From a virus (taxonomy: Duplodnaviria; Heunggongvirae; Uroviricota; Caudoviricetes): a stretch of 46,314 bases of DNA. This document shows positions 3,001 through 9,000 of the stretch, piece after piece. The DNA lies in the IMG/VR virus record IMGVR_UViG_2880361019_000007, one strand, 5' to 3'. Each line of letters starts with the position of its first letter. Positions within the stretch are counted from its first letter, which is position 1. Position numbers: made by a program.

Positions 3001-6000
3001 TGGCAAATTGAGCGAATCCATCGGTTCAAAATGCGCCGCTCCATCAGGTCAAAATGACACGATGGAAGAGGTCAAAATGAAACGCTCCATTGGTTCAAAA
3101 CGACCCAATGTCATCGGGTCAAAATGGCCTGATGATCTTACAGAGAATACAACAGAGATTACTACAGAGAATAAAAACACTTTTCGTCCGGAAGCTTCGC
3201 AACCGGACCCGCAGACGACTGAACAGGATTTTTTAACCCGGAACTCCGACGCGGTTGTGTTTAGTGCGAAAAAACGCCAGTGGGGTAGCAGGGAGGATTT
3301 GGCGTGTGCGCAGTGGATCTGGGGGCGGATCGTGGGTCTCTACGAACAGGCAGCCAGTGATGATGGCGAGATCATGCGACCAAAAGAGCCTAACTGGACT
3401 GCCTGGGCCAATGACGTGCGCACAATGCGGATGCTGGATGGCAGAAGCCACAGACAAATTTGCGAAATGTTTGGTCGGGTACAGCGAGATCCATTCTGGG
3501 TAAAAAACATCATGAGCCCGTCAAAGCTTCGTGAAAAATGGGATGAACTGGTCATCCGTCTGGGGCGTTCGTCTGTACAGCGTTGTGTGAATCATATTTC
3601 TGAACCGGATACAGAAATTCCGCCTGGTTTCAGGGGATAAGTGTTGATTTCAGGTCATGAGGTAATTTTAAGGGGGACTTGTGGCAAAAGTTTTTACACA
3701 AGAAGAGCGGGAAAAAATTAAAGGGCAGGTGGTGGAACTCGTGCGCCAGAGCGGTCGTGAGACGCTACGGCAACTGGAAGCTAAAACAGGTGCGACAAGA
3801 TATCTGATGAGCATTCTTGCCAGAGAGCTGGTTGCCAGTGGTGATGTATATCACTCTGGCTATGGGTTGTTCCCGTCAGAACAGGCTCGTAAGGACTGGC
3901 AAAACGCCCGCAAAAAACTCTCGAGGGCAAAGGTGAAGAAACCTGTTGTGGTTGATCCGGGCCTTATCTGGACATTACCCGACGGAGAAATACGCCGCTA
4001 CGACAGGCGTATGAACATAATCTGTCGCGAGTGCCGGAAGAGCGAAGTTATGCAGCGTGTATTGGCGTTCTATCAGGGATATGCCTAGAATTGTCACAGG
4101 TAATGAAATTAAAGAGTATTGGTTCGGATATGAATTGACATTTTCGCGGCAAGAGCTAAAAATAGCCTACTTGTTGGTTTTGTGTGAAAAGCAGACATTT
4201 TGAGGCTCAGGATTTGTTATCAAATAAGACCAATACTTATCGATATTAATACGCATTAAATACTGTGCAATACATTATTGCATTTTATTAGATAAGTGAT
4301 ATTTAGGGAAAAGAAAAGTCATAGAAAACAGGCCGCTATTTGTTGTTGGATTTTATAGGCTATATCTAGATTATCTTGCCACTGCGGTCTCTGTTTACCT
4401 AACAGCTTGGGCTTCTTTGCATGCAAGTTTGTAATAACGAGTGTAATCAAACGGAATGTCTATTAATCCTAAACTTAAGCGTATCGCGCTACGCTATCCA
4501 GCGTTATTCCAATATGAGTCCCCCTATATGGCAAGAAAATTAATAATATTCGGCAACGGTCTCGGTATGGCTTTAGATCCTGCTCACTTCTCCTTAGACA
4601 GAGCGTTGGAAGAAATTTGGCATCGCCCCAATTTTTTAAAAGATATCCACAAGCAACTTATCGAGCGTTGTCTTCAGCGGCAAGGTCCACCAGAAGGAGA
4701 ACATGAGTTGGATACCCTTCACCAGGCTGTCACATATTGTAAAGCTCTTGCTCAAATTGGAGAGGGGAACGTGCATTGGCTTACTGAAGATGGACTAAAC
4801 TTCCCCAAAATTACCGCCACTTATATTCACAAAGTTGCAACCAGGTTGCATAATTACGATAAAGGTTTGCCACAAAGATTCGAAAATGCGCTTGTGGAGT
4901 TTGTAAAGAACACACACTCACATATCGCGACATTAAACTATGACAAATTATTATACAATTCATTCATAGATAATGATATATTCAACGGGTATGATGGGGT
5001 TTTAGTTGATGGGATGCTAAGCCACGGATTTTCCTCTGCAGCGCTCGAACGGAAATACAATCGTAGGTTTGGTTATTATTTGCACTTGCATGGTTCACCA
5101 CTATTTATTAATCAGCATGAAAATGGGTGATGCTGCCAACTTACTGATTTAGTGTATGATGGTGTTTTTGAGGTGCTCCAGTGGCTTCTGTTTCTATCAG
5201 CTGTCCCTCCTGTTCAGCTACTGACGGGGTGGTGCGTAACGGCAAAAGCACCGCCGGACATCAGCGCTATCTCTGCTCTCACTGCCGTAAAACATGGCAA
5301 CTGCAGTTCACTTACACCGCTTCTCAACCCGGTACGCACCAGAAAATCATTGATATGGCCATGAATGGCGTTGGATGCCGGGCAACAGCCCGCATTATGG
5401 GCGTTGGCCTCAACACGATTTTACGTCACTTAAAAAACTCAGGCCGCAGTCGGTAACCTCGCGCATACAGCCGGGCAGTGACGTCATCGTCTGCGCGGAA
5501 ATGGACGAACAGTGGGGCTATGTCGGGGCTAAATCGCGCCAGCGCTGGCTGTTTTACGCGTATGACAGGCTCCGGAAGACGGTTGTTGCGCACGTATTCG
5601 GTGAACGCACGATGGCGACGCTGGGGCGTCTTATGAGCCTGCTGTCACCCTTTGACGTGGTGATATGGATGACGGATGGCTGGCCGCTGTATGAATCCCG
5701 CCTGAAGGGAAAGCAGCACGTAATCAGCAAGCGATATACGCAGCGAATTGAGCGGCATAACCTGAATCTGAGGCAGCACCTGGCACGGCTGGGACGGAAG
5801 TCGCTGTCGTTCTCAAAATCGGTGGAGCTGCATGACAAAGTCATCGGGCATTATCTGAACATAAAACACTATCAATAAGTTGGAGTCATTACCTGAAAAT
5901 GTTTTAAAACTTTCACGCTCACAACTTACTCTTGACATAGATGAACCTAGTGAGCATATAGTGTTAACTCATATAAAAAGAAAACCGTCAGTTATAGCAG

Positions 6001-9000
6001 CATCTAATGTTCTTTCTACGTACTGGGATTATTTGCAGTTTGCATTATTTGAATCAGAAGAAATAATATTGTTTGGTTACTCTGGTCTCGATATTCACCT
6101 TAACCTGCTTATTCGACCTTACCTAACCTCTAAGCCTTTAAGAGTAATTGAGTGGAGCGGTGCTGGTGAACAAAACGCTCGTGAGATATATTGGAAAAAC
6201 CAGTTGAGACGGGAAGTTACTGTAATTAGGTTGGATAACATCACTGATTTTATTGATTGGTAGCGCAATGCGAAGTTAAAGAGGCAGCCTCATATTTATC
6301 AGAGCTGGTGTACGTCCAATACAGGAGGTTATCGTGCTGGTTCTCAAATGCGCGCTGGCTATTGCGGCTGTAGTGGCAATTTATTGTCTTGCTATTGTTC
6401 TTATGGATCGCCTTTCTGATTGATTTTATATTGGCGAGGTGACGGGAGTTAAGTAGAATTGCTGCGGGTGCTTGAGGCTATCTGCCTCAGGCATGAACAC
6501 CAAAAGGCAGATAGAGAAAAGCCCCAGTTAACATTACGCGTCCTGCAAGACGCTTAACATTAATCTGAGGCCATATCTATGCGACACATAGAGATTAGCC
6601 TCTTACGGACCAAAAGGTCAAGGAGAAGCAGGCTATGAAGCAGCAAAAGGCGATGTTAATCGCCCTGATCGTCATCTGTTTAACCGTCATAGTGACGGCA
6701 CTGGTAACGAGGAAAGACCTCTGCGAGGTACGAATCCGAACCGGCCAGACGGAGGTCGCTGTCTTCACAGCTTACGAACCTGAGGAGTAAGAGACCCGGC
6801 GGGGGAGTAATCTCCCGCCACCTCTGATGTGCCAGGCATCCTCAACGCACCCGCACTTAACCCGCTTCGGCGGGTTTTTGCATTAGTCTGGTTGACAAAA
6901 ATAGAAAAATGCGAAAATATGTGGTTTACGAATTCTAAAAAAAGCGAAACTTGAAATGAATGAAAATCAGTTAGCTCCTTGTTGGGAATTTCAACCTTAT
7001 CTTGCTGAAAACTATGTTCGCCACTTGTTGGCGGAGATCGCTAACGTACTTGAGCAGCTGTACTATCATAAGCACGCATTAGACAGCAACTGGTCTGAAG
7101 GTGTAAGGGCTTATGATTGGGTCAGAAATCATCTTATTCAAAATGAAGATGCAATTCCTGGCCTTGAGATGATTTCCAAGGGGTTGGACTATGTAGTTGC
7201 TTTAAATAAAGTTCCGCTACAATTTACCAAAGATTGCATTAATAACCCCAAAAAGAAACATCGTCTGCGTCGAAATAAAGTAGAGTATGAGCAGCTCTCA
7301 TTGTTTGGTGATGTTGAGGCTGAGCAAGATATTACATGGCGAGTCATAGCTGAGCCTTTTTTATCCGAAGAGGGCGATGGTGAATTAGAGTCCACACTGC
7401 CTCGTTGGGAGGTAGCTCTTGTTGGATTTAATACTTATGGTGCTCAGATTAGTATAGTTTCTCATCAATCTACAGCATCGATGCCGCTTATGCCTCTTGA
7501 TTATAACACACTCCCTGACGAAGCGGAGATTAATAAGGTGCCTCTTCGTCGGCGTACGAAGGATAAAGATTTGGATGTGAGCAGTGATGGAACATCAGGT
7601 GAATAACTTCACTGAGTATCGGGGTGATAAGCTCAAACTAGCGAGAATGGCTGTTGGGCTTTCTTGTGAAGAGTTAGCCGAAAAAATTGGCAAGACAAAG
7701 CAATTTGTTAGCAAACTGGAGAAGGGGTGCAGGCCATCGGAGCAATGTCTTGAGTTAATATCTTCAGCGCTTATGATTAAGTCCAGTTTTCTTTTTACTG
7801 AACGAAAATACGCTCTGGAAAGTGATGTCTGCCATTTTCGGAGTAAGAAGTCCAGGACTCAAACGCTGACTAATAGTGTATTGGCCAGGGCTGAGATTCT
7901 TAATATTATAATTTCTGCTGTTGAAGGTGAAATCGAATTTCCTGACGTTAACATACCGGAGCACCCAAGGGCTGAATTACTTACTCCGAATGATATTGAG
8001 CGAGTGGCAGAAGATTGTCGCCGTGCCTGGAATTTAGGTCTTGGCCCTATATCATCAATGGTTAAATTGGCGGAGAGTTTAGGGGTAATCGTTGCGCATG
8101 TTACGGGAGTCGATGATCGTGTTGATGCTTTTACTGTTCACAATAACAGGCCTGTTATCATCAGGAACAATGTTAAAAAAAGCATATGTAGATTTCGCTC
8201 TGATTTAGGTCATGAATTAGGGCATTTAGTAATGCATGAGGGCATAACGACAGGTGATAAACTTACGGAATCACAAGCCGATCACTTTTCGAGCGCCTTA
8301 TTAGTTCCCAGGTTATCTTTCATTAAAGAATTTCCACGAATACGAGGTAAGCAATTCGACTGGAATGCTCTGGTTGAATTTAAACTTAGATGGAAAATCA
8401 GCCTTAAAATGTGTATTTATCGAGCCAGCGCATTAGGCTTATTGACCCAGGAACAGGCAAGAACTGGCTATATGCATCTTAATTCCAGAGGGTATACGAG
8501 AGTTGAACCTGGTGATGAACTTTTGCGCCCTGAAGAACCCGGCATGCTGGCCGAGGCGATTGAAATGCTGGATGATGCAACCTGGCTAAGAATTCTTATG
8601 AAAACTGGCTTGAGCCAAGATTTAATTCGTGAGTTGTTCTCCATCAACAGACCTATTACAAATCCAAGAAATATTTTCCAGATTGTTTGAGTATACCCGC
8701 TTCGGCGGGTTTTTTGTTTTTATTTTCAACGTGTTTGAAGTTTTGGACGGTGCCAGAATAGAATCAAAAATACTTAAGTAGCGCGCAGGGAGAAGAGGGA
8801 TGGACCCCGAACAGGGGGAGTGCTATTTATCTGGAAGGATTCTGTTGATGAAAATCGAAGAATTACGTGAAATTTTTAGTGAAGATGGCCTCTATACTGT
8901 GCGCGTTGAGAATGGCGCTATTGTCAGCCACTGCCGTATTAAATGTTTACAGTCTCTACATAGGAAGAGTGGAGCTGCGTTAATTTACTTTGTGGATGGA

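Follow-up and report, generated by a model that had tools for sequence, protein, structure and literature searches.

What was the gene that an insertion sequence has cut in two at positions 4456-6263 of the IMG/VR virus record IMGVR_UViG_2880361019_000007, and what does its intact counterpart do? The window, that is, the whole stretch of 46,314 nucleotides analysed here, is assigned to the Caudoviricetes and represents a Qin-like lambdoid prophage, in which the gene in question lies upstream of hokD. An earlier reading of the sequence (the original prediction) had taken it for a SIR2-like accessory gene split by IS1 and for a candidate single-gene defence or abortive-infection effector. As detailed below, we are highly confident that the locus is a SIR2-fold gene split by IS1. 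For the intact, stand-alone enzyme of 319 amino acids, abortive infection based on hydrolysis of nicotinamide adenine dinucleotide (NAD+) appears to be the best-supported explanation, which we hold with moderate confidence; the role in defence and NAD depletion rests on fold, genomic context and analogy.

The IS1 insertion and the restored reading frame

The locus comprises the following features, and residue numbers such as N161 and H212 refer to the numbering of the maximal open reading frame (ORF) of 343 amino acids.

4089-4527, plus strand: AT-rich region upstream of the SIR2 gene, presumed promoter and leader; best sigma-70-like match in a consensus scan at 4135-4163
4456-4527, plus strand: optional in-frame extension of 24 codons, MSINPKLKRIALRYPALFQYESPY, part of the maximal 343-amino-acid ORF
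4528-5125, plus strand: 5' fragment of the SIR2 gene from the conserved start (MARKLIIF...), residues 1-199 of the 319-amino-acid protein
5118-5125: left copy of the target-site duplication, TGAAAATG, 8 bp; the gene's own copy, which occurs once in the intact allele
5126-5893, plus strand: IS1 element, 768 bp, oriented like the split SIR2 gene
5894-5901: right copy of the target-site duplication, TGAAAATG, 8 bp
5902-6263, plus strand: 3' fragment of the SIR2 gene, residues 224-343 (343-amino-acid numbering) and the stop codon, with a ratio of nonsynonymous to synonymous substitution rates (dN/dS) of 0.145

The boundaries proposed for IS1 and its duplication proved to be exact. The element is bounded by imperfect terminal inverted repeats. 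Within it, insA is intact at 5181-5456, the insB' frame extends over 5375-5878 and the A6C motif for frameshifting is found at 5432. The element lies in an AT-rich target between the two 8-bp copies; a direct repeat of 9 bp does not hold. With a match of at least 99% to IS1 annotations in thousands of E. coli records, it is a canonical copy that shows nothing unusual. The G+C content of the SIR2 gene is 39%, as compared to 53.5% for IS1 and 51.5% for the window, in line with the earlier description of the gene as AT-rich.

Removal of IS1 together with one copy of the duplication joins positions 4456-5125 to 5902-6263, which results in an open frame of 1,032 nucleotides, comprising 343 codons and a stop, that runs to position 6263 as predicted and reads ...INQHEN-VLKLSRSQLTLDIDEP... 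across the restored junction. Moreover, an uninterrupted allele, for which a search of related prophages had been proposed, is present in a prophage of E. coli O55:H7 CB9615. The restored stretch of 1,525 nucleotides (4200-5125 plus 5902-6500) differs from this locus at two positions, both located upstream of the gene, and the junction and the entire coding sequence are identical. Correspondingly, local BLAST aligns the O55:H7 prophage with the window on either side of IS1, with an overlap of 8 bp in the reference. Since a natural uninterrupted allele shares the coding sequence and the junction, restoration of the frame is not due to chance. The intact allele corresponds to WP_000101550.1 and bears the RefSeq label "SIR2 family protein"; hence, the identification as SIR2 is not new.

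The gene is carried by 46 of 5,426 complete E. coli genomes, in all of which it is full-length and annotated as 'SIR2 family protein', and the IS1 junction of the window was found in none of the 5,426. Given that all carriers are intact, that none contains the junction and that the split copy has no coding substitution, the insertion is recent and private to the source of the window. It is located after codon 223, 11 residues beyond the HLHGS motif, and severs the C-terminal third of the Rossmann fold, to which the invariant GYSGxDxHLN motif and three beta-strands belong. The 5' fragment (4528-5125) encodes beta-strand 1 and the glycine-rich loop FGNGLG, the helical insertion, TLNYD (N161/D163) and HLHGS (H210/H212). 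The 3' fragment (5902-6263) encodes the last three Rossmann strands (277-281, 303-308 and 330-334 in the model), GYSGxDxHLN and an HIVLTH motif. The window copy is therefore dead, a pseudogene of a prophage cargo gene that was inactivated by a recent IS1 insertion: its N-terminal fragment of 224 amino acids would be unable to complete the fold, and the function would be lost.

Escherichia albertii NBRC 107761 (locus L013, 8001-9032) also has the gene intact, with a single difference in 1,032 nucleotides to the restored gene of the window, and this near identity indicates that the cargo gene moved between Escherichia species recently.

The start of the protein

The length of about 344 amino acids given in the original prediction is correct for the maximal ORF of 343 amino acids and less so for the product. 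As judged from sequence comparison, the protein probably starts at M25 (window position 4528) and comprises 319 amino acids. The start of the identical intact allele is placed at the position equivalent to 4528 by the Prokaryotic Genome Annotation Pipeline (PGAP), and the homologues of 319-320 amino acids, which are the majority, start at this methionine, the family profile having 319 match positions. Furthermore, a Shine-Dalgarno-like GAGG/GGAG sequence is found 6-10 nucleotides 5' of the corresponding AUG in six genera, stop codons close the upstream 24-codon frame in Serratia, and the first 24 residues of the AlphaFold model reach a predicted local distance difference test score (pLDDT) of only 60-65. 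Counting against the shorter product, 11 homologues of the enterobacterial type keep the 24-codon extension open and of fixed length and share an LRYPxLF motif in it. At 0.44, as compared to 0.14 for the core, the dN/dS of the extension is intermediate. Positions 4456-4527 are probably a 5' leader rather than protein; they could serve as an alternative N-terminus, or as a conserved leader or regulatory element.

A predicted SIR2 fold closest to that of SIR2-HerA

The profile and structure searches that had been suggested as a check of the restored protein both support the assignment to SIR2. The protein matches the Pfam family SIR2_2 (PF13289) with 26.1 bits, above the gathering score of 24.5 (E 1e-5), and the match covers residues 156-302, thus crossing the IS1 junction. 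SIR2_2 is likewise matched by all 43 homologues, though weakly in each case (best E 2.9e-8), and DUF4917 (PF16263) by 30 of the 43, again weakly (best E 1.5e-8); some of them are annotated as 'DUF4917 family protein' by their sources. For the restored protein itself, no DUF4917 match is obtained, even when E values up to 1 are allowed. With these weak matches in mind, the label 'SIR2_2/DUF4917-like' used previously is apt. A search of NCBIfam with the restored protein returned nothing, and PHROGs gave a match at chance level (E 0.3).

The motifs noted earlier, FGNGLG, NYD and HLHGS, are present and are invariant or nearly so among the 43 homologues. The glycine-rich loop is nearly invariant (G33, N34, G35 and G37), and N161, Y162, D163, H210, L211, H212, G213 and S214 are invariant, as is GYSGxDxHLN at 282-291. 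A catalytic histidine had been assigned to HLHGS without further distinction. By analogy with the 'HG' rule of sirtuins, it is probably the second histidine of the motif, H212, H210 being likewise invariant.

The structure was modelled with AlphaFold on homologue P0001, which is 98% identical to the restored protein and of the same length, using the alignment of 43 sequences. The model of this proxy (pLDDT 86.3; predicted template modelling score 0.87) shows a SIR2 fold of the Rossmann type, into which a small domain is inserted. In a Foldseek search of the PDB, the SIR2 protein of SIR2-HerA ranked first (E 5e-11, template modelling score about 0.58). In the structure ranking, the SIR2 subunits of SIR2-HerA (Nezha) reached 19.3 (8w9l) and 17.4 (8yhx and 8j4u) with 265-274 residues aligned, followed by ThsA (14.6), KomC (14.4), deacetylase sirtuins (at most 12.9), Avs5 (12.4) and FAM118B (10.9). 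Taken together, the predicted fold is that of SIR2 and closest to the SIR2 subunit of the anti-phage SIR2-HerA (Nezha) complexes.

In the model, the small domain, at about residues 40-155, consists of helices only, and the protein has a single invariant cysteine; hence, the Cys4 zinc ribbon of sirtuins is lacking. These features bear on an alternative function, namely that of a sirtuin that modifies proteins, either as a lysine deacylase or as an ADP-ribosyltransferase. Encoded by the prophage as a moron for regulation or virulence, it would have its targets among host or bacterial proteins instead of depleting NAD as an immune effector. Among DUF4917 proteins, we found a single one that has been characterised, SliP of Campylobacter jejuni, which is reported to be a secreted sirtuin deacetylase acting on host histones (PMC10421069). 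By description, SliP and DUF4917 proteins are similar in size to the protein studied here; the weak DUF4917 matches of 30 homologues point in the same direction, and the carriers include pathogenic E. coli, namely O55:H7 and porcine strains with Stx2e prophages. However, the restored protein does not group with the classical sirtuin deacylases of the CobB, Sir2Tm or SIRT type, as it does not match the Pfam deacetylase family SIR2 (PF02146) and lacks the small domain with the Cys4 zinc module. The structure ranking favours SIR2-HerA, and DUF4917 is not matched by the restored protein. Moreover, no secretion or virulence context was seen here, and the occurrence of members in free-living marine and soil bacteria is a poor fit to host-directed virulence. 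We consider this alternative improbable.

Comparison with known SIR2 defence systems

The SIR2 proteins of SIR2-HerA (PDB 8w9l, 8j4u, 8sub, 8wld and 8yhx) are similar in size, with 340-400 amino acids as compared to 319, and share with the family the helical insertion that replaces the sirtuin zinc module as well as the occurrence in defence contexts. In contrast to these systems, an adjoining herA gene is present neither in the window nor in 81 other loci, and the sequence identity is just 14-17%. Thus, the protein resembles a SIR2 subunit of the Nezha structural type, but it is not a member of the SIR2-HerA system.

Other systems were rejected as well. Thoeris does not apply, since the protein is a single domain of 319 amino acids, no ThsA model is among the PADLOC matches and no TIR gene is found in the neighbourhood in the window. 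DSR1 and DSR2, of about 1,000 amino acids with a C-terminal sensor, are far from a protein of 319-343 amino acids, and no Dsr model is among the PADLOC matches. The Aga_SIR2 hidden Markov model of the SIR2-APAZ/short prokaryotic Argonaute (pAgo) systems (SPARSA) matches weakly (E about 4e-6) and only in the SIR2 core, and there is no pAgo neighbour. The Sir2 homologue of Vassallo et al. (2022) is a different system, as PADLOC gave no match to the PD-T4, PD-T7 or PD-lambda models. In general, ThsA, DSR1/DSR2, Avs5 and the SIR2-APAZ/short pAgo effectors each have a sensor or signal module (SLOG, a large C-terminal domain, a STAND NTPase or APAZ) or a partner (ThsB or pAgo), none of which is present here.

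Among SIR2 immune proteins without a partner, sole-Sir2 of the CRISPR-supervised 'CRISIS' set is functionally the nearest precedent. It is a single-protein NADase in vitro, and a homologue of it protects E. coli from T2 and T4 (bioRxiv 10.1101/2024.12.27.630466). Like the family studied here, it is encoded by a single gene. By description, sole-Sir2 is a protein of about 440 amino acids with a DSR2-like C-terminal SIR2 domain and a distinct N-terminal putative sensor, whereas SIR2 accounts for the entire 319 amino acids of the present protein, which is of the Nezha type and not of the DSR2 type.

Distribution of the family and selection on the gene

A profile search of 1.84 billion representative proteins yielded 359 clusters, nearly all of 310-360 amino acids among the matches listed. 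Members with 56-82% identity occur in Escherichia, Serratia, Klebsiella, Pantoea, Aeromonas, Vibrio and Pseudoalteromonas, and a pattern scan of about 185,000 species genomes gave 113 matches that extend to Beta- and Alphaproteobacteria and a few other phyla, including the free-living marine and soil bacteria mentioned above. Comparison with an E. coli allele of 89% identity gave a dN/dS of 0.14, with a dS of 0.38, and the ratio is the same on either side of the IS1 site. Since both halves show the same strong constraint, the gene was functional until IS1 hit. A tblastn search against 50,697 phage genomes gave no match, and a Foldseek search against the viral structures of BFVD returned nothing at E <=0.001, which indicates that the gene is prophage cargo rather than a common phage gene.

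Neighbouring genes and the search for a partner

To define partners, the ORFs located within four genes of the SIR2 gene were clustered across 81 loci. No conserved partner, be it HerA, ThsB, TIR, SLOG, APAZ, pAgo or any other, was found, and no neighbour family recurs in more than five of the 81 loci, in agreement with the single-gene character proposed for the system. The contexts vary by genus, and the family member is nearly always a lone gene. It is often inserted alone among housekeeping genes, as after sucABCD in Aeromonas or, in Klebsiella, with a LysR regulator on one side and unrelated genes on the other. Among 150 immediate neighbours from 38 genera, Gabija, MADS, PARIS, Septu, E1-E2/JAB, DpdE and a Zorya-type helicase are matched strongly, and many of the neighbours are housekeeping genes. 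In one Pseudoalteromonas locus a TIR protein and an AHH toxin are encoded alongside the SIR2 gene.

Two parts of the family deviate from this pattern. Members of one distant subclade from Alphaproteobacteria, with 38-43% identity, always have a divergent gene directly upstream. Its product comprises about 200 amino acids and has no Pfam match, and the gene is located at the following positions.

L060, 7381-8040: alphaproteobacterial upstream gene
L071, 7445-8050: alphaproteobacterial upstream gene
L074, 6700-8022: alphaproteobacterial upstream gene
L081, 7402-8004: alphaproteobacterial upstream gene
L086, 6362-6976: alphaproteobacterial upstream gene

An overlap of this gene with the beginning of the SIR2 match is seen at least in L060 and L071, and the pair looks like a two-gene variant of the system. 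In addition, two Vibrio proteins, P0042 (506 amino acids, Vibrio parahaemolyticus) and P0044 (541 amino acids, Vibrio aestuarianus), have a fused in-frame N-terminal extension of 190-220 amino acids. These extensions are homologous to each other (E 7e-11) and to nothing else tested, and could represent a fused sensor domain. The Vibrio fusion domains have no detectable similarity to the product of the alphaproteobacterial upstream gene, and a Rosetta-stone link was therefore rejected.

These data bear on the possibility that several components are required and that the protein provides the NADase effector, with a partner acting in trans, such as a HerA-like ATPase or a signal enzyme, or with coupling to hokD or to the neighbouring Rosmer system. 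In its favour, the closest structural relatives require HerA, a sensor is not visible in the 319 amino acids, and the alphaproteobacterial upstream gene and the Vibrio fusions indicate that partners or sensor modules exist in parts of the family. However, a partner is not conserved among the 81 loci, homologues of the Vibrio and alphaproteobacterial modules are absent from the window, and the lone insertions in Aeromonas and Klebsiella argue for autonomy. Likewise, Rosmer is absent from the Qin-like prophage with the 89% allele, and hokD from the loci outside E. coli. We therefore regard a multi-component system as unlikely.

The prophage setting

The genes that flank the SIR2 gene in the window are listed below.

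2173-2694: YdaT, precedes the SIR2 gene
2621-3640: ORF of 339 amino acids, precedes the SIR2 gene
3681-4088: DUF977, precedes the SIR2 gene
6635-6790: hokD, between the SIR2 gene and Rosmer
6956-7606: RmrT, 216 amino acids (PADLOC E 4.6e-25)
7584-8690: RmrA, 368 amino acids (PADLOC E 5.6e-105; Pfam HTH_3 and Peptidase_M78)

With YdaT, the 339-amino-acid ORF and DUF977 on its 5' side, the gene indeed follows the replication genes, as stated before. The Rosmer anti-phage system (6956-8690) is intact and consists of two genes with overlapping reading frames. In Qin of E. coli K-12 (L094, 4620-5373), relB-relE instead of SIR2 occupies the slot upstream of hokD, and in another Qin-like prophage of E. 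coli the 89% allele is found in this slot without Rosmer. The presence of relBE in K-12 Qin indicates that the slot is an exchangeable site for toxin or defence cargo (relBE, SIR2 or Rosmer).

The shared position also raises the possibility that the SIR2 gene, as a functional analogue of relBE, resembles a toxin and stabilises the prophage as a module for addiction or stress, without a specific role against phages. NAD-depleting enzymes are intrinsically toxic, and an IS1 insertion that inactivates the gene would be in keeping with relief from a fitness cost. In contrast, a small antitoxin-like gene is not conserved alongside, and strong purifying selection as well as solitary chromosomal copies outside prophages would be left unexplained. 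Moreover, such a module overlaps with a role in defence and is only partly distinct from NADase-based abortive infection. This possibility appears very unlikely.

Several further observations were made in the prophage. A short hydrophobic ORF, VLVLKCALAIAAVVAIYCLAIVLMDRLSD, is located at 6335-6424 just past the stop codon of the SIR2 gene and overlaps a terminator-like hairpin at 6358-6377. A tRNA cluster (13383-13632) follows the Q-antiterminator region and comprises a tRNA with a CAT anticodon, Arg-TCG and Arg-TCT, with a gene for a SASA-family esterase next to it; the CAT tRNA is classified as Met by ARAGORN and as tRNA-Ile in the annotation of the related O55:H7 prophage. The layout of three tRNAs and a SASA esterase is typical of lambdoid prophages of the Shiga toxin (Stx) type. 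ISEc12 of the IS21 family (istA, 513 amino acids; istB, 249 amino acids) is located at 43605-45907 on the minus strand in the tail-fibre/Lom region, and the presence of both ISEc12 and IS1 indicates that the prophage is decaying.

A putative NADase with a proposed role in abortive infection

What could the intact protein do? We consider it fairly likely that it is an NAD+-consuming enzyme, and our assessment leans slightly towards a function in anti-phage defence. In the favoured explanation, NADase-based abortive infection, the intact protein would bind NAD+ via FGNGLG, N161/D163 and H212 and hydrolyse it to ADP-ribose and nicotinamide. It would be held inactive until a phage cue is perceived, with the helical insertion (about residues 40-155) as the probable surface for sensing or regulation. 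By analogy with other defence SIR2 proteins, the likeliest switch would be self-assembly into an oligomer or filament. The SIR2 protein of SIR2-HerA is dodecameric according to the titles of the PDB entries, and activation via filaments or oligomers is reported for Avs5, ThsA, KomBC and FAM118B. The resulting depletion of NAD+ would abort the infection and thereby protect the lysogen population.

Several points weigh against this explanation. The matches given by PADLOC v2 are only marginal, with E values between about 1e-5 and 1e-6 for Aga_SIR2, PDC-S21 and SIR2, and searches of PDB sequences with the single protein and with the profile of 43 sequences retrieved no SIR2 chain, so that kinship to solved structures is visible by fold alone. 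A sensor domain is not evident in the 319-amino-acid protein, as judged by Pfam and the model. Many loci have only housekeeping neighbours, and the link with defence genes is real but partial; as plain neighbour counts, the data are suggestive rather than statistical. In the type III SIR2-HerA system the SIR2 subunit alone has no NADase activity and needs HerA and a phage trigger (PMC13434337). Consequently, the regulation of the present protein must differ from that of SIR2-HerA, and the activity of a partner-less relative cannot be assumed. Finally, literature searches with the accessions and PDC-S21 revealed no experimental work on the family, and DUF4917 led to SliP alone, the reported activity of which, as described above, is that of a deacetylase.

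A more specific version of this explanation is tentative and, in our view, rather doubtful. The intact family might represent a minimal, self-contained SIR2 immune protein, an offshoot of Nezha without HerA, in which the helical insertion senses the cue and self-assembly fires the NADase. As part of the same proposal, sensor modules might have been added secondarily, as in the Vibrio fusions and the alphaproteobacterial upstream gene.

Implications

That IS1 disrupts a cargo gene in a decaying prophage is nothing out of the ordinary. The locus is of value for the family to which it leads, which is compact, strongly conserved, horizontally mobile and similar in structure to the SIR2-HerA effector, yet always without HerA or a recognisable sensor. 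The intact allele, found in O55:H7 and in porcine Shiga toxin-producing or enterotoxigenic E. coli, and the allele disrupted by IS1 constitute a natural pair of test and control. As PADLOC matches are marginal only, the family, if protective, would provide defence-annotation tools with a model that they are missing. To our knowledge, the well-characterised SIR2 defence systems all rely on a partner or a fused sensor. If the protein does protect alone, a bare SIR2 domain would both sense infection and fire.

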